Below, in pieces: positions 11,455 to 56,474 of a DNA stretch of 64,000 nucleotides. Position 1 is the stretch's first letter; every line of letters starts with the position of its first letter. The stretch is from Escherichia coli. Lineage in GTDB: Bacteria; Pseudomonadota; Gammaproteobacteria; Enterobacterales; Enterobacteriaceae. A program made the position numbers and the translations under genes. Below the pieces are notes generated by a model. It made no database searches. It saw only the letters and a program-made list of their open reading frames with translations, and was not told the DNA's origin. Location: NCBI GenBank assembly GCA_025336685.1, contig GCA_025336685.1_4717.1. One strand, 5' to 3'.

Positions 11455-13251
11455 TCAATCGATTATGTCACGATCGTTAATTTCTACAATTTCTTCATCG
11501 AATCGACCGACGTCTTTCTTCAAGCCTGCATTTGTTGCTGCAACGTCATTTGCGATTTGTGGGGTAACGATTAACCGACCACGCTCATCGATAGGTGCGT
11601 ACATACTGAACTTCTGACGTCCGGTTGGTTCGGAGTGTGGAAGATTCAGATAGCTTGCACAGAACGGGATGGAACCACTAACCAAACGACTCTCGTCAGC
11701 CAATGCAGCACCGCCTGCGTTTTGGCTCTGGAGAACAACATGCGTGCTCACTTTGAACAGCATGCAATCACCAGGTGACTGAATCGATGTTGCCACTTTC
11801 TCACGTTTATCACGATTGCTCTGGATATTGAGAATCGCTTCCGTTGCAACTTGATTTCGCAACGCCTTCTGTACATCGCGATTGGTCATCTCTTTACGGT
11901 TGTTCTGTCGTTTACCACGTTCCGTGGTTTTAAGATGGAACCCCAGTTTAAAGATGCTTTTACGCACATCCTCCATGACATATTCCAACACCATCAATTC
12001 CTTACCGAACATCGTCGTGGTATCAACACGACTCATTTCGATAGTAACATTGTCAATCAGATACGCCATAAATTCGTAGAAGTCGTCGCAAGGAATATTT
12101 TCCTGTTTGAACTTCTTCTGTTGAATTTCGTCAACGTAAAGATCGAGACTGTCGATGTGGTGGTTTACATCACGCAACAAACGCGCATCCGCATTGTTGT
12201 TATTAAAGATAATCAAACCGAGTAATGTACGCCAATGGTCTGGCGCATTCGCGAACTCTTCAACCGGATAGTCTTCCGGGAAACGATCGTAATAACGGTC
12301 GATGAGATATAAGAACGCACCGACAAGGCCAAGAACAATACGTTCCGTACCTCCACGTCTTACAGCGATTTGAATATCAGGATGTTTATAACGTACAGCG
12401 TTAGCGCTACGGCTTTTACCGCTTTTGCTGATACTAAAGCCTTTAGGAATAACCCCCATGGTGCGATAGATTACCCATTGGTCGCGCGGAAAATCACGTT
12501 CAGCAAGGTTCCGTCCGGTTACGGCTTCGACACCTGCAAAACGTCGGAAACATTCACCCACCCCATACTTCGCAAAGAGATAATGACCCAGTGTGGTTAC
12601 GCTGGTGTGGTTGATGTTGTCACCGTTCACTTTACTTTGTTTGGTAAGATGATAGATTTGCGACCAGGGTAACGACAGATAATGACGATAATCGATACCC
12701 GTTGGTGTATCATTGCTCAGGAACTGATACGGTGTACGTTTAACCGTGATTTTGTCACGCGGAAGCATGATGAACGCCATGTCTTTCGTGTAACTGATTA
12801 CAGGGTCAGCGAGCACCGCACTGAGAATGAAGTTCGCACCACGTAGACGCATTTTACCACCCTGACCTACTGCGGGCAATAGGAGAGGATGTCGGATAAT
12901 GCAGTAGTCCTTTCCCGGCTCACGGCGGTCACCTGATTCCATCGCACCGTACCAGCGGAATTCTAGCATCACCATAAACACGTCGGAAGGTGCAAGGTCG
13001 AAGGTCAGCTTACCGCTATCCTTCCCTTTGGTTTTCTTTCCTCCGCTTAAGTAGTGGAACTGTTCGCGGGCCATACAACGACGTAGGCCATGATACACCA
13101 GATCCTTAGGTAAACTATCTTTGCTGTTCCGCCAAAGACGATCAACATAGGACTCAACATCTTGCATCTTATCGACGACGATGTTGCGTGCTATCTTCTC
13201 GTTCATCTTCGGTGCAAGCTCAGCGACAGCTTTGCAGAATCTAGGATCCAT
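11455..13251 (-). CDS. hypothetical protein (598 aa)
   Basis: ATG at 13251 with AGGAG SD. Confidence 0.85.
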   Translation of the reverse strand: MDPRFCKAVAELAPKMNEKIARNIVVDKMQDVESYVDRLWRNSKDSLPKDLVYHGLRRCMAREQFHYLSGGKKTKGKDSGKLTFDLAPSDVFMVMLEFRWYGAMESGDRREPGKDYCIIRHPLLLPAVGQGGKMRLRGANFILSAVLADPVISYTKDMAFIMLPRDKITVKRTPYQFLSNDTPTGIDYRHYLSLPWSQIYHLTKQSKVNGDNINHTSVTTLGHYLFAKYGVGECFRRFAGVEAVTGRNLAERDFPRDQWVIYRTMGVIPKGFSISKSGKSRSANAVRYKHPDIQIAVRRGGTERIVLGLVGAFLYLIDRYYDRFPEDYPVEEFANAPDHWRTLLGLIIFNNNNADARLLRDVNHHIDSLDLYVDEIQQKKFKQENIPCDDFYEFMAYLIDNVTIEMSRVDTTTMFGKELMVLEYVMEDVRKSIFKLGFHLKTTERGKRQNNRKEMTNRDVQKALRNQVATEAILNIQSNRDKREKVATSIQSPGDCMLFKVSTHVVLQSQNAGGAALADESRLVSGSIPFCASYLNLPHSEPTGRQKFSMYAPIDERGRLIVTPQIANDVAATNAGLKKDVGRFDEEIVEINDRDIID

Positions 13252-17429: not shown

Positions 17430-17834
17430 TCACAAACGACGCAGGCGATAATGGATGGAACGATTGGTGCAATATGAACGGAACAGCGGCAATTGCGCAA
17501 CTTCCGCAAGACTCATATTAATTCGCAGGTGTTCAATAACGGCGCTGTAGTTATCAGCAATACGATCGCTCAATAACTCTTCTGCCAATAAAGGAAGACA
17601 ATCGACAACAATCGCGATCACATCCTCATTAACATAACGCACCCGAACACTCAACGGACGTTTGTCTGGGTTGTAAGTTGGATCCGCCAAACGACGTTCA
17701 ATATCACGCGGATAGCTCGTCAGTAAATGGTAATAACCATTGTCATAACGATTGATGTACTCACACAGCACACCAACGTTCTTCTCTGGCGGTAAACCTG
17801 TTTCGTCATAGTGGATACGCAAACATACCACCAA
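17430..17834 (-). CDS. hypothetical protein, C-terminal ORF of a possibly frameshifted gene (134 aa)
   Basis: ORF-track start is TTG; overlaps 17806-18051 in another frame; no in-frame ATG near the 5' end. Confidence 0.45.
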   Translation of the reverse strand: MVVCLRIHYDETGLPPEKNVGVLCEYINRYDNGYYHLLTSYPRDIERRLADPTYNPDKRPLSVRVRYVNEDVIAIVVDCLPLLAEELLSDRIADNYSAVIEHLRINMSLAEVAQLPLFRSYCTNRSIHYRLRRL

Positions 17835-21215: not shown

Positions 21216-22118
21216 TTAGAAATTATTGCCGAACCGGTTATGGTTGTATGGTTGGTAGTGTCCGTAATTGCCTGGGAAGCCACCATACGTCGTAGGCTCC
21301 GGTTTAGGGACTTCCATAATCGGATTTTTAGAATTGATCGCCATCACGTAAAGGGTTACGGGTGATGCTGCGTGGCCCATTTCGACGACCACACGGCGGA
21401 TATAATCAATGTATGCTGTTATTGCAGGCGTCAGTTTGTCTCCTTCGGTAGTTATAACGGTGCCGTCGGAAAGAATCTCACGAACCGCGCACCATTTACC
21501 AAGATGAACTCCTTGCTGCGGCTTTACTCCAGCAGAGATAGAGAGATAGGTATCGTACGTCGTTTGATGATACGGATGACTATAAATAGATTCCGCTTTG
21601 TTTTCGTCTTTCCCTAAGTACTCGCCTTGCTTAGGAGTATGAGTTGATATCATATCGGTATTTTCCACGAATGTCTTTCCTTCGAGTTGTTTGATTAATC
21701 GTTTAACCGATTCAGTTATGTTGTTGTGTCTAGGGATCAGCTTTAAGTAAACAGTCGGTAACTGGATTGTTGACCCATCACTACTGCGCGGATAAGATAA
21801 TTTGTAAAACTGTTCAAAAATCCGCCGTAACGCTTCGTTGTCTGAAGTTGCCAATTTAACATAGGAGCATCGTCCTTTAGCATTGGGATTGTAGAGAAGG
21901 AGAATAACGTCTTCGTCAGTACGTGTATCCTGAGGATGACAAGCGATGTAGTGAATGGGAATAGCCGTATCTTTTTCGTCTCCCGGTTTGATAGACAATG
22001 AAAAATCATGAGTTTCTTTTAACGTTCGTAACGTGCAGGATGCGTCGTCACTATTAAGTAAGAACACACCGAAACGCACGCTTTCGTATGCTGACGGGTC
22101 GCGTATTAATAAGGTCAT
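21216..22118 (-). CDS. hypothetical protein, tandem paralog family with HP.H.TYD.YL motif (about 300 aa)
   Basis: ORF-track start 22196 is TTG; ATG at 22118 has AGGAG SD at 7 nt; shares HPYHQTTYDTYLSISAGV with 22204-22977. Confidence 0.8.
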   Translation of the reverse strand: MTLLIRDPSAYESVRFGVFLLNSDDASCTLRTLKETHDFSLSIKPGDEKDTAIPIHYIACHPQDTRTDEDVILLLYNPNAKGRCSYVKLATSDNEALRRIFEQFYKLSYPRSSDGSTIQLPTVYLKLIPRHNNITESVKRLIKQLEGKTFVENTDMISTHTPKQGEYLGKDENKAESIYSHPYHQTTYDTYLSISAGVKPQQGVHLGKWCAVREILSDGTVITTEGDKLTPAITAYIDYIRRVVVEMGHAASPVTLYVMAINSKNPIMEVPKPEPTTYGGFPGNYGHYQPYNHNRFGNNF

Positions 22119-22203
22119 GTTCGGCTCCTTGATTACGATAAGGATGATTGCGGTTTTGTGGTGCTGGTAGGGCCCTAAACAAAGGAACCCTACCAATATT
22201 AGG

Positions 22204-22977
22204 TTATTCAGGATCGGCGTAGAAATGGTGAGGATAGCCGGAGTACGATCCTGCGTTACCGGCTATGGATTCTTTCTGGGAATCGACGACGAGCGCATAG
22301 AACTGTCGGGAATTTGTTAGCGTTGAGAAATAAGCGGAAAGGACTTTTTCATTCAACGCATCGCAAGGTAGACAGGTGCGACCGCAAAACGTAACGATAC
22401 GGCCGTCAGGATAGATCTCACGAATCATTCTCCACTCACCGATATCCACTGGTGATGGTGCTGCTACACCACCTGTTATCGTTAAGTAACGATCGTACGT
22501 GGTATGGCATTCAGGATGAATATAGATCGGCTTGTTCGTTTCGACAGGTTCCGAAGTGTCTCGACGACTAAGGAGTTCAACGACTTCAAGATAAATCGTT
22601 GGTAGATCGCGGAGAATACCGGTGTTACGACGTTTCTTTGTGATTCGCGGACGAATCTCGTTAAGAGCGTATTCGAGCTTACGTTCAGCTTCGTACGCAT
22701 CGAGTTTTATTAGGTGGCCCGGTTCATCGGAATGATCCTGAGTTATGTAAACGAAATACGTGTTGTCTTTTGCAGCGCGAAAGATTCGAGCGACCTTAAA
22801 TGTTTCTACAGTGCGATAACCAAGGCGCGATTGATTTTCCACAGGAGAAAATATCCAATGTCGTCCTTCGTCCGCCCCAACAATTTCGTTGAAACTATCC
22901 GTTTGTTCTGGGACCTGGTAGTCAGCCATTAATGTATCAAGAGCGTCATCGGCCAGTTTGGTGTAAATATCTGTCAT
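22204..22977 (-). CDS. hypothetical protein, tandem paralog of 21216-22118 (257 aa)
   Basis: ATG at 22977 with GAGGA SD; HPECHTTYDRYLTITGGV motif. Confidence 0.8.
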   Translation of the reverse strand: MTDIYTKLADDALDTLMADYQVPEQTDSFNEIVGADEGRHWIFSPVENQSRLGYRTVETFKVARIFRAAKDNTYFVYITQDHSDEPGHLIKLDAYEAERKLEYALNEIRPRITKKRRNTGILRDLPTIYLEVVELLSRRDTSEPVETNKPIYIHPECHTTYDRYLTITGGVAAPSPVDIGEWRMIREIYPDGRIVTFCGRTCLPCDALNEKVLSAYFSTLTNSRQFYALVVDSQKESIAGNAGSYSGYPHHFYADPE

Positions 22978-39465: not shown

Positions 39466-40121
39466 GCTTTCGCAGATGACTGTCGCACGAAGCAGCGTAC
39501 GAGCGTAGCTAACGTAGAAGCCCAGGGACTCAACAAGACGTACCAGAGCGGCTTCTTTGAAACTCAGACCGTCGGCAGCAACATCGATTTCCAGGTTTTT
39601 GTTAACACGTTTAACAATTTCTGGAATCAGATCAACAGCATTACGTAGCGCTATGAACGTTTTCTACCCAGCTTCCAGAGCGAACGCGGGTTAAACGCTG
39701 ATGCAGATCCTTGTCAGCGAGTTTCCATAAGGCGCTTTCCCTTTTGGAGAAGCGGAGCGGATGTCTCGTAGGCGGAATCGCGGTGTTGTTGATTTCGTCA
39801 CGGATCGATTCAAGTGCGTCAGCAACACCGGCAGGTTTAAAAGCGGCTTCAAACTGCGAATGAATTCTTTAAAATCAATTGCCATGAGTGAGCAATTCCG
39901 CGCTATTTCGAACAGGTTACGTGTGTTAACGAATCTGTGGGACGTTTCCGGTACGGAGGCCTGGAGGATCGTCAGAAGATCAACCCGAGGTTGACGAACT
40001 GTTGATTTTTCCAGCTGTTTGAAGCTTACTGTGGTCCCTTGATCCAAGCTGTGGAAATAGAAGGTCACCATCTCTTCAGCTTGTCGATGATGATCAACTG
40101 CATTGCAAGGGCTTCAGCCAT
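39466..40121 (-). pseudogene. frame-disrupted 5' region of the gene ending at 38989 (at least two frame changes)
   Basis: Three minus-strand frames each carry protein-like open stretches (40121-40065, 40071-39691, about 39880-39664) separated by frame switches; ATG at 40121 lies 13 nt after the upstream stop. Confidence 0.4.
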
Positions 40122-40133
40122 GACTTTCACGTG

Positions 40134-41021
40134 TTATAGCCGACAAACGACGTCCGATTCATGCCTGATGGCTTCCTGGTTAGCCTTAGAGATGATATAG
40201 GTGGAGGCGATTGCTCCAGAAGAAGGGATCTTTGTGCTCGCTGCAGCTTTTGCGGCATTGATGCGCGCAGCATTAACAGCCTTGCGGATACCCTCTTTAT
40301 CCATACGTGAGATTCGTTTGTGTTCACGAACCAGGTCACTAAGCAGGATCATGTCGCTCCAGAAAGACAGCTCACCCGCCATCATGCGATGCCAACGTGC
40401 TCGCCAGGTGTTCTGTGGGCCGCCGATCGCTAAAATCGACGCAAGCACTTCCGCTGGTGAACTTGCAATACGCATGCTGATGTTCAATGGCATTTTCATC
40501 GTTGCCTGACCATCGGTCAGCGTCACGGTTAAGAACTTGCCGGTGACCGCGTTTGCATCTTTGTTCAGCAATTCGATCGCTGCGTCGCTGGCCCCAACAT
40601 CGAGGCTATTTTTTTGTTTCCCCAGCAGGTTGAATCCTTTGTCATCAAGGAAAACAAGGCTTTTGCTATCCGCACTTTCCAGTGCTAATTTAACAGCCTT
40701 ATCCATCATGTTAGCGTTACGGTTTGGATTCACACGACCCAGCGTTTTATCGACACTGATATTACCCACCTGCATGATGGTGTTCAACGCCAGTAAATAG
40801 AACCCGGTATACATATTTTCAGCGGTGCGCATGCAGTTGCCTAACGCATTGCGTGCGTCGCTATAATACAACTCACGTTCAAAGATCAACGGCGCGATAA
40901 CGCGTGAAGGTTGTGAGAGTTCAACCAGCGAACCTGGCTGGATAAGTTTATTAACTTCGTAGACTTTAGCGATACCGGACGCAACAACGTTAACAGCGTC
41001 GGCAATTTCTGATGCTACCAT
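40134..41021 (-). CDS. hypothetical protein (295 aa)
   Basis: ATG at 41021 with AAGGA SD. Confidence 0.8.
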   Translation of the reverse strand: MVASEIADAVNVVASGIAKVYEVNKLIQPGSLVELSQPSRVIAPLIFERELYYSDARNALGNCMRTAENMYTGFYLLALNTIMQVGNISVDKTLGRVNPNRNANMMDKAVKLALESADSKSLVFLDDKGFNLLGKQKNSLDVGASDAAIELLNKDANAVTGKFLTVTLTDGQATMKMPLNISMRIASSPAEVLASILAIGGPQNTWRARWHRMMAGELSFWSDMILLSDLVREHKRISRMDKEGIRKAVNAARINAAKAAASTKIPSSGAIASTYIISKANQEAIRHESDVVCRL

Positions 41022-41055: not shown

Positions 41056-41265
41056 ATGTCTAATTACTACGACCAAGCTATTCAAACCATTCAGGAAGAT
41101 AATGCGTCGTTAACACCCGAAGCTGTGGAGGCAGCGGGCAATGCGGTGTTATTCACTGATTCAGATTGGGCAATGGCGCGGAAGAATATTCGTACCAGTG
41201 TCGGTCAAGGGACATACGGACAGTATCGCCAGACGGTATCGGAATGTGTCACCTATTCCGGGTAA
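41056..41265 (+). CDS. small ORF (69 aa), possibly the 5' part of the downstream gene joined by a +1 frameshift
   Basis: ATG with AAAGGAAAG SD only 34 nt from the divergent start at 41021; overlaps 41141-42259 by 125 nt in another frame. Confidence 0.35.
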   Translation: MSNYYDQAIQTIQEDNASLTPEAVEAAGNAVLFTDSDWAMARKNIRTSVGQGTYGQYRQTVSECVTYSG

Positions 41266-42262: not shown

Positions 42263-43378
42263 ATGAGCGTAACCAACAAAGATCTTGCTGAACAGCTCAA
42301 TCGCTATATGCTTTCACCCATTGAAATGCAGGCTGTTGCAAGCGATATGATCCGTTTGGCTTCCGATGGTGAGTTAACCCTGGTTGACCCCAGCTGTCCG
42401 TTTGTTTATCTGCTGGAGGTTGCAACGGCGACGGCTGCGAACCAGAACGCGCGGGATGAATCCCGTGTTCGCGAACTGTATCCGAAACTTGCAACCAACT
42501 GGAGCCAGCTCTATCGTTGGATGTATGACGAGTCGTACGTCGGACGTTTCGCAATGCCGGGTAAAACGGAAATCATTTATTCGTTAGGGTATCAGGAAAT
42601 CCTCGATCGTGCTGTAGAGATTCCAAACACCGCCGCATCCGATGATTTAAGCCGTTCTTACAGCCGTAAGTTAGTGATACCACGTACGACGGTGTTTACG
42701 GTAGCCGGAATGGATTTCGGGCTGCATTATCCCATCGAAATCCAAGTGCAGGCGCACGACCAGATACGCGTTGTTTATAACACTGATAACATCAGCCCGC
42801 TGCAAACCTTGGAGAGTAACCAAGTTGAGTATGGTGTTGTTCGTGTAAAAGCGGGTAAAGTGTTGGTGATGCGTATCCCACTGTTCCAGTTTAAAACGCT
42901 GGTAAAAGATGTGCCGTTTAACAGCGTTCACGGGATGAACAGCAGCATTACCTTCGAAGATCAGTTTTACCATTGTCGTGCGTACATGTCGTCGGATAAC
43001 GATACCTGGACGGAGATAGCGACAACCCACAGCCAGCAGATCTACGATCCGTTAACACCGACCATCGCGTTACAAGTAGAAGGGAACAAACTTAACTGGC
43101 GTGTTCCTGAAATTTATTTGTCTCAAGGTACGATGGATAAAAGCACCATTCGACTCGAGGTGTTGACGACGAAAGGGAAAATCAGCGTCGACCCGTCTGA
43201 TTACGACGTGACTGATTGGAAAGATAATTACATCGATCTGTCACCAAAAGCCGAACAGAAATACAGTGCGCCGCTAAGTGCGTTCAACATTAAAGGGATT
43301 TATAGTGAAGGGGCGTTGTCGGGTGGACGATCTGCGTTAACATTCGAGGAACAACGTGAACGCGTTATGGCGAAGTGA
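42263..43378 (+). CDS. hypothetical protein (371 aa)
   Basis: ATG with GAGGGA SD; 3-nt gap to upstream gene. Confidence 0.85.
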   Translation: MSVTNKDLAEQLNRYMLSPIEMQAVASDMIRLASDGELTLVDPSCPFVYLLEVATATAANQNARDESRVRELYPKLATNWSQLYRWMYDESYVGRFAMPGKTEIIYSLGYQEILDRAVEIPNTAASDDLSRSYSRKLVIPRTTVFTVAGMDFGLHYPIEIQVQAHDQIRVVYNTDNISPLQTLESNQVEYGVVRVKAGKVLVMRIPLFQFKTLVKDVPFNSVHGMNSSITFEDQFYHCRAYMSSDNDTWTEIATTHSQQIYDPLTPTIALQVEGNKLNWRVPEIYLSQGTMDKSTIRLEVLTTKGKISVDPSDYDVTDWKDNYIDLSPKAEQKYSAPLSAFNIKGIYSEGALSGGRSALTFEEQRERVMAK

Positions 43379-52775: not shown

Positions 52776-52968
52776 AAGGGCTAATGGATCGGCTGGCCGC
52801 ACCAATCACAATGTGTTCGTTGCTATGCAACGGCATTCATAGAAATACCTTTTGAGTGTAGCATTACCATTCACACCCCAAGCAATAAGAGCGGTCGGTT
52901 AAAAACAACAGAACGTGAGGATGATATAGAAAATCACCTTTTAACACTTATTACGAGTTTATCAAGCC

Positions 52969-54138
52969 ATGAGCGAACAAGAACGAAAACCTAAGAAGAA
53001 ACTGCTCGGTATTCAATGTCGACACATCAGCTATAACGAAGCGAACGATGGTAGTAAGAACGACCTCATGATCGCAAAAGAGATCATGTTCTTCGATGAT
53101 AATACGCAAGCGACGAACCTTCGCTTCTTTGAGAATTACAAACGTCCGTTTTGGGTGACGGTAGAGAGTAAACGTAAGAACAAATATAAAAAGGAAAGCG
53201 AGAAGCTCTCGCATGTGCGTCGCTACGATGTCCGCCAAAGCGAACTGGTTGAAAAGATCAGCTCGGTACTTTATAAAAGACGTGCTGACGATAACACCCG
53301 TTTACAGCAGCTCGCACGGAGTCCCTACCTCTATGGCACGGACGTTAGCGCCAGCTGTTATTTAAAAACCCAATATAATACAAAATGGCCGGAATACGTC
53401 GATAAATTACCCGCTTCTATCGCCTGTTTCGATATCGAAACCGACGTTGTCCATGGACACGGTAAGATCGTCTGTATGTCTATTACAATGGGATACAATG
53501 CGATACTTTGCTATACCAAGGACTTCGTTGGTCATATTCCGAATGCGATTGAGAAAACCCATGAGAAGATCCGATATTACCTGGCCGAACGTCTGAACAC
53601 CAAAGAAGATCCTCACGCGTTCGAAAAATATCAGTACGATGTTCGAATCGTAGAAAGTCCGGCGCAAGCGGTCATCCAATGCATGCAGAAGGTTCACGAA
53701 TGGCAACCGGATTATCTCCTTGGCTGGAATATCGCGTTCGATATTCCGCGCATGCTCCAGGCACTGAACGAGGAAGGGTATCGTCCCGAGGATGTTTTCT
53801 CCGATCCTCGCGTACCCCCTAAGTATCGTATTGCTCGCTGGGTACCACCGAAAACCGACAAGGTATCTGCTTCGGGTCGTAAAACCAACCTTACCCTCGA
53901 GCAGACCTGGCCGATGTTTTATACGATGGCTACGTATCAGGTTATGGATGCGATGTGTGGTTATAAGTTCGTTCGTTTAGGAAGACCGGATGAGGGACGT
54001 TACTCACTCGATGCGGTATTAGAGCGAAATAAATGCCATACGAAATTAAAAGCAATTCCTGGTACAGAAGGGTTCACAGAGCTCGCCTGGCACGAAAGAG
54101 ATGCAAACGAACCATCAAATCGACTACGGCGTATATAA
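52969..54138 (+). CDS. family-B DNA polymerase fragment: N-terminal 3'-5' exonuclease domain (389 aa)
   Basis: Exo I CFDIETD, Exo II YLLGWNIAFD, Exo III-like YQVMDA; weak SD. Confidence 0.8.
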   Translation: MSEQERKPKKKLLGIQCRHISYNEANDGSKNDLMIAKEIMFFDDNTQATNLRFFENYKRPFWVTVESKRKNKYKKESEKLSHVRRYDVRQSELVEKISSVLYKRRADDNTRLQQLARSPYLYGTDVSASCYLKTQYNTKWPEYVDKLPASIACFDIETDVVHGHGKIVCMSITMGYNAILCYTKDFVGHIPNAIEKTHEKIRYYLAERLNTKEDPHAFEKYQYDVRIVESPAQAVIQCMQKVHEWQPDYLLGWNIAFDIPRMLQALNEEGYRPEDVFSDPRVPPKYRIARWVPPKTDKVSASGRKTNLTLEQTWPMFYTMATYQVMDAMCGYKFVRLGRPDEGRYSLDAVLERNKCHTKLKAIPGTEGFTELAWHERDANEPSNRLRRI

Positions 54139-54292
54139 CCTTTGGGATAACCAGGGTATCGAGGCGTTGGACCAGAAAACGAACTATTCTGACATCCCTA
54201 TTCGTTTGGCGGCGTCAGTTTGAAGATTTCAGTTCTAACCCTAAACGTATCTGCGACAAACTTTCTTCGTTTATCTTAACCGTGGGGAAGTC

Positions 54293-54712
54293 ATGGGATG
54301 CACTGCCGACGACATGACCCAGGAAGAAGATAAGTGGGTTATCTCACGAACCGGACATATCGTCACATTACCGTGCGATCTCATGGCAGACAACGGCATT
54401 CATCTCTTCTGGGATATGCCTAATCTGAGAAGTTATATCCGTCTATTCGTTGCAGACCTCGACATAAGCAGTTCATATCCAAATGGGCAGATCCTGCTCA
54501 ATCTATCCAGAGCCTGTGTTTTCCGTGAGCTATCACGCATTGAGGGCGTCTCTGACTATCAATTCAGGAAGTTAGGTATCAACTTTATTACCGGAGGTAA
54601 AACGAACGCTGTAGACTTCTGTAGAATCGTTTATAAAGCACCATCGATGTTTGAACTCTTAGAGCATTTCGATGCGACGCGTCCGAAAGAGGAAGCGCGG
54701 ACCATCGAATGA
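54293..54712 (+). CDS. family-B DNA polymerase fragment carrying motif A (139 aa), separated from the exonuclease ORF by frame changes
   Basis: VADLDISSSYPNG matches pol B motif A (DxxSLYPS); no motif B or C before the stop at 54712. Confidence 0.55.
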   Translation: MGCTADDMTQEEDKWVISRTGHIVTLPCDLMADNGIHLFWDMPNLRSYIRLFVADLDISSSYPNGQILLNLSRACVFRELSRIEGVSDYQFRKLGINFITGGKTNAVDFCRIVYKAPSMFELLEHFDATRPKEEARTIE

Positions 54713-54777
54713 TTCAAGTGATACGATAAGGGTCATCCCGTTGATCCTCGCCTAACAAAAAGAAAACGCATGCGAAG

Positions 54778-54809
54778 CCCCTCCCCCTGGCGGAAGCCGG
54801 AGGGAGGGG
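54778..54809. terminator. GC-rich hairpin with GGAA loop followed by TTTTATGTGTTTTTAATT; bidirectional terminator
   Basis: Between stop of the polymerase fragment and stop of 54828-55277; T-rich tracts on both sides. Confidence 0.55.
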
Positions 54810-54827
54810 TGGAGGTTTTATGTGTTT

Positions 54828-55277
54828 TTAATTATTGTTGATGGGGTTATCGTCCGGCTTATATTCGATGCCGTAGGCGACGTAACGGTCTGTCGTATGG
54901 ACGACAAGCGAGATGGGGAAATCATAATGCGTGGTTTTGTCTCGGACGAGCTGAGTAAAGAGATCCATATAACGTATTAAGTCTTCACTGGTGTAATCAG
55001 AAGGGAAGAAGACGTCGATGGTTATTGAATCTTCATAGAGGCGTATAACCAACTTATCCAGAAGGTCGGCATATTGGTTAGCCGGGGTGACGTCCAGCTC
55101 ACAGATATCACGATCTCCTTCGTCTCGTGATACCCACATCATGGTATCCTGTAATGAGGTTTCAAGGATCTCGAAAATGCATTTTGCTGTAAGTTTTAGT
55201 TTATTTGTTACGTCATGGTTAGGTGAATAATGGTCACGGATGTTTTTCACTGCGTCTTTGATAGAGAAAGTCATCAT
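54828..55277 (-). CDS. small hypothetical protein, paralog of 55288-55797 (149 aa)
   Basis: ATG with AGGAG SD; shares ILETSLQD / LLESSLQD segment with next gene. Confidence 0.75.
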   Translation of the reverse strand: MMTFSIKDAVKNIRDHYSPNHDVTNKLKLTAKCIFEILETSLQDTMMWVSRDEGDRDICELDVTPANQYADLLDKLVIRLYEDSITIDVFFPSDYTSEDLIRYMDLFTQLVRDKTTHYDFPISLVVHTTDRYVAYGIEYKPDDNPINNN

Positions 55278-55287
55278 TGATGCTCCT

Positions 55288-55797
55288 TCAAATGAAATTA
55301 ATACGTGCGGCTGTCGAAACGAGTTCGCTTGTAAAGCAATGCTTACCGTCGGTATTTACCGTGTGAGTAAGTTTACAAGCCTTAGTGGTTGGGTTAGCGC
55401 CAATGACCAGGACGGTCGTCATATCGAACAGTTCCACACGTTGGAGAAATGCCGTATCGGCTACCTTCTGTAAACCGGTTGCTTCAAAATCGATGTGGTC
55501 GTTAAGCGATACCAATTGGATTTCAATACGTTCTTTGAAAAGTTTAAACGTTACTGAAAACCGATGAGGTTCGGTATTAAACCATAAAGGTCCGCGTTGG
55601 AAGTGCTGATATGCTTCATTCGTGTTGTTCTCGAAAACCCAGTAGTCGTGGACAAGAGAAGCGTCTTGTAACGAGGATTCCAGGAGATCAAACGTCTTAT
55701 TTATTGCTTTCTCAAGCATAGGTGCTAGTGAACCCGGGTATCCAGCAAATGCTGTTTCGGCAATCGATTTTATTGATACGATGTTATTCTGGTTCAT
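55288..55797 (-). CDS. small hypothetical protein, paralog of 54828-55277 (about 169 aa)
   Basis: ORF-track start is TTG; ATG at 55797 has AAGGAA SD at 8 nt. Confidence 0.75.
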   Translation of the reverse strand: MNQNNIVSIKSIAETAFAGYPGSLAPMLEKAINKTFDLLESSLQDASLVHDYWVFENNTNEAYQHFQRGPLWFNTEPHRFSVTFKLFKERIEIQLVSLNDHIDFEATGLQKVADTAFLQRVELFDMTTVLVIGANPTTKACKLTHTVNTDGKHCFTSELVSTAARINFI

Positions 55798-55801
55798 TTC
55801 T

Positions 55802-56281
55802 TTATTCCTTGTTGGATTCTTCAATGTGCTTGGTGTCGTAGGACAGATGCTGAATTAATTTTCGAGGTTCGATGAATATACGACATGTGATAAACACATC
55901 AGGATCGTATTGTTCCACGCAACGTCCGAAGGCTCGTTTTGCGGACTGACGCATCAAGGCTAATTCCTGATCGTTCATCTCATCATCAAATTCGATGTGT
56001 ATCGTGATTTTATCGGGAAATAAATAGATAGAGTAATCGCTACCGATATCACCGTCGTCAAAACGATAATCGTTGTGGTAATGGTGGAGTTTACCTTCGT
56101 GTATCGTCTGGTACCACCCGACGACACTATCAAGACCCATACCCAGGCGTCCGAATGCTTGGTTAATAATATCCTCGACGACGGATGCGGGCGTGGGACC
56201 ATGGAATAAACGATCTAAGCGCTTTTTCATTGATTTGTCGGTTTTCACATTCATTGTTTCTTTTCCTGTTATAATCGGCAT
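55802..56281 (-). CDS. small hypothetical protein (159 aa)
   Basis: ATG at 56281 lies 4 nt after the hairpin whose 3' arm (GGGGAAGGG) would be its SD; alternative ATG 27 nt downstream. Confidence 0.7.
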   Translation of the reverse strand: MPIITGKETMNVKTDKSMKKRLDRLFHGPTPASVVEDIINQAFGRLGMGLDSVVGWYQTIHEGKLHHYHNDYRFDDGDIGSDYSIYLFPDKITIHIEFDDEMNDQELALMRQSAKRAFGRCVEQYDPDVFITCRIFIEPRKLIQHLSYDTKHIEESNKE

Positions 56282-56284
56282 ATA

Positions 56285-56317
56285 GCCCTTCCCCGGCCTT
56301 GATGGCTAGGGAAGGGT
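56285..56317 (-). terminator. junction hairpin (CCCTTCCCC...GGGGAAGGG) abutting the start of 55802-56281
   Basis: Inverted repeat; flanked by CATATAG and GTATG; may occlude the RBS of the downstream gene. Confidence 0.4.
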
Positions 56318-56474
56318 ATGTTTACGTGTAATTACTCTGACGTAAGCGTCTTTATGCGTGTCGAAAAGTCTGTTGACGTTAGATTTGAATGAGTATTCTG
56401 CCGTCATTATTCTACCTTAATGGTTTAACCGACACGTGTCCCCACTTAACAAGGGACACGATATCGTTGATTAA

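Follow-up and report, generated by a model that had tools for sequence, protein, structure and literature searches.

The N-terminal subunit gene of a split family-B DNA polymerase in a Goslar-like phage genome, with frame changes that are very probably errors in the record

Coding content and motifs of the polymerase locus

On the plus strand of the window, by which we mean the whole stretch of 64,000 nucleotides analyzed here, positions 52969 to 54712 encode the N-terminal subunit of a split family-B DNA polymerase, which comprises the N-terminal domain, the 3'-5' exonuclease, and motif A and is the orthologue of gp068 of Escherichia phage vB_EcoM_Goslar together with its second exon. As given, the gene is spread over several frames. 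An ORF of 389 aa in frame 1 (52969-54138, plus strand) is made of 376 native codons followed by a 13-codon out-of-frame tail; an open stretch continues in the second frame up to 54223 and another in the third frame up to 54317, and the second frame is used again in an ORF of 139 aa (54293-54712). This layout had already been described from the nucleotides alone (here, the sequence-only reading), and our analysis recovered the same ORFs and switches. A tblastn search with Goslar gp068 placed its residues 1 to 376 in frame 1 with 99.7% identity, and with one base removed and three restored, the conceptual product of the whole region is 581 aa long.

Exo I (FDIETD, 53428-53445, plus strand) contains D155 and E157, both invariant among the 40 homologues of the family that we aligned, and Exo II (WNIAFD, 53725-53742, plus strand), with the equally invariant N254 and D258, aligns to WNVESFD of RB69. 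Motif A (DLDISSSYPNG, 54455-54487, plus strand), in which D, Y, and P are invariant, aligns to FDLTSLYPS of the same phage. All three lie where the sequence-only reading had put them, but its choice for Exo III, YQVMD at 53935-53949, was mistaken, as both the alignment of the 40 homologues and the RB69 profile assign the invariant Y389-x3-D393 to YNLWD at 54134-54148 (plus strand), the counterpart of Y323-NIID327 in RB69 gp43. This motif is located in the second frame, just past the first frame shift, and the Yx3D signature of Exo III is found only in the repaired reading. A regular-expression scan of the six frames found no motif B or motif C in the ORF or anywhere in the 64-kb window, only short chance matches in noncoding frames, in agreement with what had been said of the region before. 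Motif B (Kx3NSxYG) and motif C (DTDS) are therefore not joined to the exonuclease in one polypeptide, as they would be in a complete family-B polymerase encoded by a single gene.

The repaired protein matches PHROG 3011 (DNA polymerase) over practically its entire length (E value of 1e-173, residues 8 to 574 on positions 5 to 570 of a profile of 576), so that the comparison with the polymerase fragments of phiKZ-like phages, which had been proposed as a check, came out positive. A database search gave 280 homologue clusters, mostly of 555 to 650 aa and all terminating in a common C-terminal block; one of them (P0001, an intact protein of 583 aa that represents 215 sequences) has 99% amino acid identity to the repaired product. 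A profile built from the alignment of 40 homologues matched RB69 gp43 with an E value of 5e-5, with Exo II, Exo III, and motif A lined up. The structure was modeled with AlphaFold for P0001 (99% identical) and gave a mean pLDDT of 83.7, with high values as far as approximately residue 460 and low ones in the palm fragment, a part that would need its partner. When this model was used for a fold search, the top 50 PDB matches were all PolB enzymes (RB69, T4, Pol epsilon, and Pol II), the best with an E value of 3e-13, over some 450 to 470 columns. Pfam yielded only a subthreshold match of the N-subunit to DNA_pol_B_exo1 (E value of 0.008), and a PDB search with single sequences returned no match either for the N-subunit or for gp244 of Goslar; family membership is thus based on PHROG, on the profile-to-PDB comparison, and on the fold search. 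Together, the PHROG match, the lengths of the homologues, the profile, and the fold matches show that the gene codes for the N-terminal domain, the proofreading exonuclease, and the first strand of the palm, which bears motif A, and that a conserved stand-alone protein of ca. 560 to 600 aa (PHROG 3011) naturally terminates at the 54712 stop, approximately 80 aa past motif A.

Downstream of the stop, between convergent genes, there is a GC-rich hairpin (54778-54809; -36.8 kcal/mol, z = -4.4) with a 14-bp stem, a GGAA loop, and tracts rich in U on either strand. It is kept in Goslar, where it is unannotated, and is probably a bidirectional terminator. A terminator had been predicted at this place; the strong hairpin is there, although a simple terminator scanner made no call on it. 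The stretch that follows is a variable array: compared with Goslar 81190-84820, window positions 54713-56340 are without the intron, the endonuclease, and gp070, and contain other small minus-strand ORFs of approximately 150 to 180 aa (54828-55277, 55288-55824, and 55802-56281).

Relatives of the window

Goslar was the sole megablast match to our queries (52900-54800 and two 25-kb blocks), with 93 to 95% nucleotide identity, and the window is collinear with positions 28372-92441 of its genome. Given this collinear match, we can assign the window to the genome of a Goslar-like chimallivirus, an E. coli jumbo phage, of which it is, by nucleotide comparison, a part. Goslar, which belongs to Goslarvirus, is a nucleus-forming jumbo phage of the phiKZ-like type. 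The close relatives used for comparison were drawn from ENA, Logan, and NCBI, and the lineage of the window is approximately 5% diverged from every available one and distinct from all of them. A megablast search of E. coli genomes and of plasmids was negative, as were exact-protein look-ups of three window proteins.

Goslar-like genomes of around 237 to 244 kb are common in public data (contigs L010 to L022), and among them are single contigs in the NCBI assemblies GCA_008106945.1, GCA_009290805.1, and GCA_025611195.1. Exact copies of the major head protein of the window were found in 118 collection blocks and those of its gp059 orthologue in 499. Positions 21216-22977 (minus strand), which adjoin the gp047 region, are a variable accessory island: within 1.7 kb that have no alignment in Goslar, they carry two ORFs, of 326 and 257 aa, whose C-terminal halves resemble each other.

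The catalytic half of the polymerase

In Goslar, the remaining polymerase motifs are found in gp244 (174314-176467, 717 aa), which matches the Pfam family PF20286 (Divergent Family B DNA polymerase, divDNApol) with an E value of 2e-204 and carries KLDNNSLSG as motif B and SDTDS as motif C. Fingers, motif B, motif C, and thumb are therefore made in this phage from a separate and distant gene, ca. 93 kb from gp068. The PF20286 partner gene of the genome studied here presumably lies beyond the window, and we can expect the N-subunit and the PF20286 protein to assemble into one polymerase. The proposal of a split polymerase with its C-terminal part encoded elsewhere, one of four offered by the sequence-only reading, which had made no choice among them, was thus borne out by gp244 and by the literature (PMC5105663 and PMC7824862). 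Another gene annotated as polymerase in Goslar, gp039 (orthologue in the window at 11458-13251, minus strand), was considered as the missing C-terminal half and rejected, as it is a homologue of phiKZ gp123, a subunit of the non-virion RNA polymerase (PDB 7ogp_E, E value of 1e-40).

A group I intron at motif A

The annotated product of Goslar gp068 is only 499 aa long and ends in ...FVAD, at a point where the ORF is cut by an insertion of 1,762 nt (81187-82948 of the record and 5567-7328 of contig L001). Within the insertion lie the gene of a NUMOD1/HNH_3 endonuclease (gp069) and a core that matches the Rfam model of group I introns (RF00028, 44.7 bits, E value of 1.5e-9, just short of the gathering score of 50 bits). 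The last nucleotide of exon 1 is U (GAU) and that of the intron is G, and joining GAT to CTC restores both DLDISSSYPNG and a protein of 583 aa. Judging from these features, the N-subunit gene of Goslar is predicted to be interrupted precisely within motif A, between D and L, by a group I intron that bears a homing endonuclease; neither this intron nor the exon 2 that follows it is annotated. The window and L016, a metagenome relative without the intron, represent intron-minus alleles, and in the window the three Ser codons immediately following the intron site on its 3' side are synonymously recoded (AGC AGT TCA versus TCT TCA AGC in Goslar).

Distant chimallivirus homologues (approximately 38 to 40% identity) are cut at the same position of motif A, with P0062, P0107, and P0119 ending in ...HVAD(LD), while P0090 extends a few residues beyond the cut. 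In contig L023 (4992-5325), an Intron_gpI match without an ORF comes directly after the stop and is followed by exon 2, and in L025 (5068-7336), such a match is accompanied by an HNH_3 endonuclease; both score 27 to 29 bits, below the gathering score. Since distant homologues are cut at the same position and have Intron_gpI matches there, motif A of the N-subunit gives the impression of a site to which introns home recurrently in chimalliviruses. This adds a new member to a well-known kind of element, the group I introns of phage polymerase genes; it is incidental here and, as biology, only mildly new. Goslar, with the intron, and the window phage, without it and with a recoded flank, make a natural pair for the study of intron-mediated competition.

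Frame changes in the polymerase gene

We aligned the gene with Goslar and with L016, the reference used beside Goslar for this purpose. The first change is a +1 insertion at 54095 (plus strand), where the window has CACGAAAGAG and the relatives CACGAAGAA, and which moves the reading from frame 1 to frame 2. Three deletions of 3, 2, and 1 nt follow at 54183-54193 (plus strand); with a net loss of 6 nt, they turn KTKDYSMTIP into KTNYSDIP and remove D406, which is invariant in the family. Two 1-nt deletions only 4 nt apart, at 54219 and 54223 (plus strand; GTCAG-TTTG-AAG in the window against GTCGGATTTGAAAG in the relatives), change frame 2 to frame 0, and a last one at 54262 (plus strand), which shortens a run of four T to three, brings the reading back from frame 0 to frame 2. 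All of them are private to the window. Hence, the three frame changes counted previously are real as switches of the reading frame, but they do not give the number of indels, as four events shift the frame (+1 at 54095 and -1 at 54219, 54223, and 54262) and the net -6 at 54183-54193 comes in addition.

At these sites, the Goslar-type state is GAAGA at 54095, KTKDYSMT, GGATTTGAAAG, and four T at 54262. The frame of the relatives is continuous throughout, in the 499-codon exon of Goslar, in the 583-codon gene of L016, and in P0001 (583 aa); even in P0002, with only 66% identity, the length is the same and the motif DFSSNPKRICDKLF is kept across the affected stretch. No independent copy of the frameshifted allele was found, and exact DNA patterns across two of the shift sites were absent from IMG/VR. 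The private indels of the window lie partly outside homopolymers, and several are deletions of 2 nt, which counts against an origin in error.

When the window is compared with L016 in the frame of the relatives, 60 codons differ synonymously and only 2 nonsynonymously, both of the latter upstream of the shift; within 54078-54300, the figures are 10 and 0. Codon changes private to the window number 39, of which the 6 nonsynonymous ones all overlap deletion sites. Downstream of codon 376, every clean private change is synonymous (14 of 14), for which our estimate of the probability by chance is approximately 4e-9, taking about one-fourth of random changes as synonymous. The density of substitutions in the polymerase patch is not raised. 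The fact that clean substitutions downstream of the shift are exclusively synonymous shows that the intact polymerase frame has been under purifying selection.

The same type of indel in other genes

Uncompensated private indels of 1 to 2 nt relative to Goslar were also detected in the orthologues of gp042 (at 17813), gp061 (eight deletions at 39959-40159), gp062 (at 41218; a tail-tube-like protein, PF23971), and gp063 (at 43372, 44622, 44685, and 44744), and the orthologue of gp060 has four more deletions. In relatives, these genes are intact, with lengths of 997, 401, 368, 300, and 206 aa: gp060 to gp063 in Goslar and six independent genomes (L017 to L022), and gp042 in Goslar and another six (L010 to L015). 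Every one of the indels in gp042 and gp060 to gp063 is private to the window when compared with Goslar, L010 to L015, and L017 to L022. Altogether, the window contains around 22 private deletions and 5 insertions, grouped in a few patches of 100 to 500 nt at 17.8, 39.65 to 40.16 (39654-40159), 41.2, 43.4, 44.6 to 44.7, and 54.1 to 54.3 kb.

Origin of the frame changes

We consider it highly probable that 52969-54712 is the N-subunit gene of a two-gene chimallivirus family-B replicase and that its frame changes are small indel errors in the record. The indels are private, the intact frame has been under selection, and the same type of indel is present in other genes, all of which leads to this reading. 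The changes at 54095-54262 would then be nonbiological, one of several local, deletion-biased error patches in the window, produced for example by an unpolished long-read consensus, and the real phage would almost certainly have one uninterrupted frame of 583 codons, as all its relatives do. Chimalliviruses are strictly lytic, and a lytic phage could not carry five broken conserved genes; neither would natural decay be expected to give only clustered small deletions amid purely synonymous substitutions. An origin in error, which is drawn here from comparison between sequences, is the most economical reading and the most likely one. Sequencing indels were among the options listed by the sequence-only reading, and this is the option that the private, clustered, and deletion-biased indels, found in four other conserved genes as well, came to support.

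The main competitor, which we regard as unlikely, takes the indels as genuine and very recent, in a defective or decaying Goslar-like genome (for example a nonviable variant or a remnant in a bacterial assembly) that would have lost the function of its polymerase N-subunit and of several structural genes. The indels are, after all, present in the sequence as given, Goslar-like contigs of around 240 kb inside NCBI bacterial assemblies (GCA_008106945.1 and GCA_009290805.1) prove that carried-over phage DNA exists, and a lineage distinct from every available relative leaves room, as far as comparison alone goes, for real private mutations. However, since every clean private substitution beyond the shift is synonymous, any inactivation would need to have been essentially instantaneous, and events of 1 to 2 nt, clustered and with a strong bias toward deletions, would need to have disrupted five conserved genes simultaneously. 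Natural decay also yields stop codons, larger deletions, and nonsynonymous changes, and in strictly lytic chimalliviruses there is no dormant state in which it could take place. An older pseudogene, in which the lineage would be losing its exonuclease subunit, deserves hardly any credence. At face value, the 389-aa ORF indeed has neither Exo III nor motif A, but codon differences run at 60 synonymous to 2 nonsynonymous over the whole gene, the part after the shift included, and the family is conserved across phiKZ-like phages (280 homologue clusters), and DNA polymerase genes count among the core genes of Chimalliviridae (PMC12908238). The suggestion of a decaying pseudogene is thus contradicted by clean substitutions that, beyond the first shift, are all synonymous in the intact frame.

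Programmed recoding, by ribosomal frameshifting or transcriptional slippage, that would join the frames into a full N-subunit strikes us as extremely improbable. Each alternative frame is open exactly over the stretch where it is needed, yet open alternative frames are also to be expected in an intact ORF that has recently acquired indels. Within 170 nt, four separate shifts, not all of the same sign, would be required, and direct reading of the sequence revealed no slippery heptamer and no long homopolymer at the sites. The shifts are absent from Goslar, L016, P0001, and P0002, where the frame is continuous, and with one uninterrupted frame in every close relative, the idea of programmed frameshifting raised earlier had to be abandoned.

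If errors in the record are the cause, the record is above all a quality flag: the apparent pseudogenes (the polymerase N-subunit, the tail-tube-like protein, and several virion proteins) should not be read biologically, and automatic annotation will mis-call the genes hit by indels. It is very unlikely, in our opinion, that the indels are real and that a Goslar-like genome persists with its exonuclease subunit truncated ahead of Exo III, its motif A placed on an ORF of its own (139 aa), and its tail and virion genes broken. Were this true, it would mean either a defective genome kept by coinfecting helpers or a novel way to read through multiple shifts.

Comparison with known split polymerases

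A split architecture is already known for phiKZ-like phages and is textbook knowledge for this phage family. A "split subunit DNA polymerase" is mentioned for phiKZ (PMC5105663, citing its reference 22), the PolB of group 1 jumbo phages has been described as divergent and without a fused exonuclease, the latter being encoded elsewhere (PMC7824862), a divergent PhiKZ PolB cluster has been listed (PMC7544198), and the core genes of Chimalliviridae include DNA polymerase genes (PMC12908238). The gene in the window resembles the split PolB of phiKZ-like phages and Chimalliviridae (N-subunit, PHROG 3011; catalytic subunit, PF20286 and PHROG 2927) in the full-length match of its N-subunit and in its stand-alone product of approximately 570 aa, and the partner is distant in the sister genome, Goslar; nothing substantive differs here except the frame errors. 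The N-subunit carries motif A, which places the break between motif A and motif B; in PMC7824862, the partner is described as no more than a stand-alone exonuclease.

The nearest counterpart is Goslar gp068 (YP_009820753) with its unannotated exon 2, which has the same genomic position and neighbors, 95% nucleotide identity, 99.7% amino acid identity over the first 376 codons, and the same C-terminal end (...EEARTIE) as the conceptual product of the window. In Goslar, however, the frame is continuous through 54095-54262 and motif A is split by the 1,762-nt group I intron, whereas the window has seven small private indels and no intron. In the fold of its N-terminal and exonuclease domains, the window protein agrees with gp43 of RB69 and T4, and Exo I to III and motif A align, with an identity of only ca. 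15%; in contrast, gp43 is a single chain of approximately 900 aa to which fingers, motif B, motif C, and thumb are fused. Other split PolBs, gene 43A/43B of a T4-like Aeromonas phage and PolB1/PolB2 of Methanothermobacter, are also made of two polypeptides that must associate, but they belong to other lineages and have other split points, and their genes are adjacent or nearby rather than ca. 93 kb apart.
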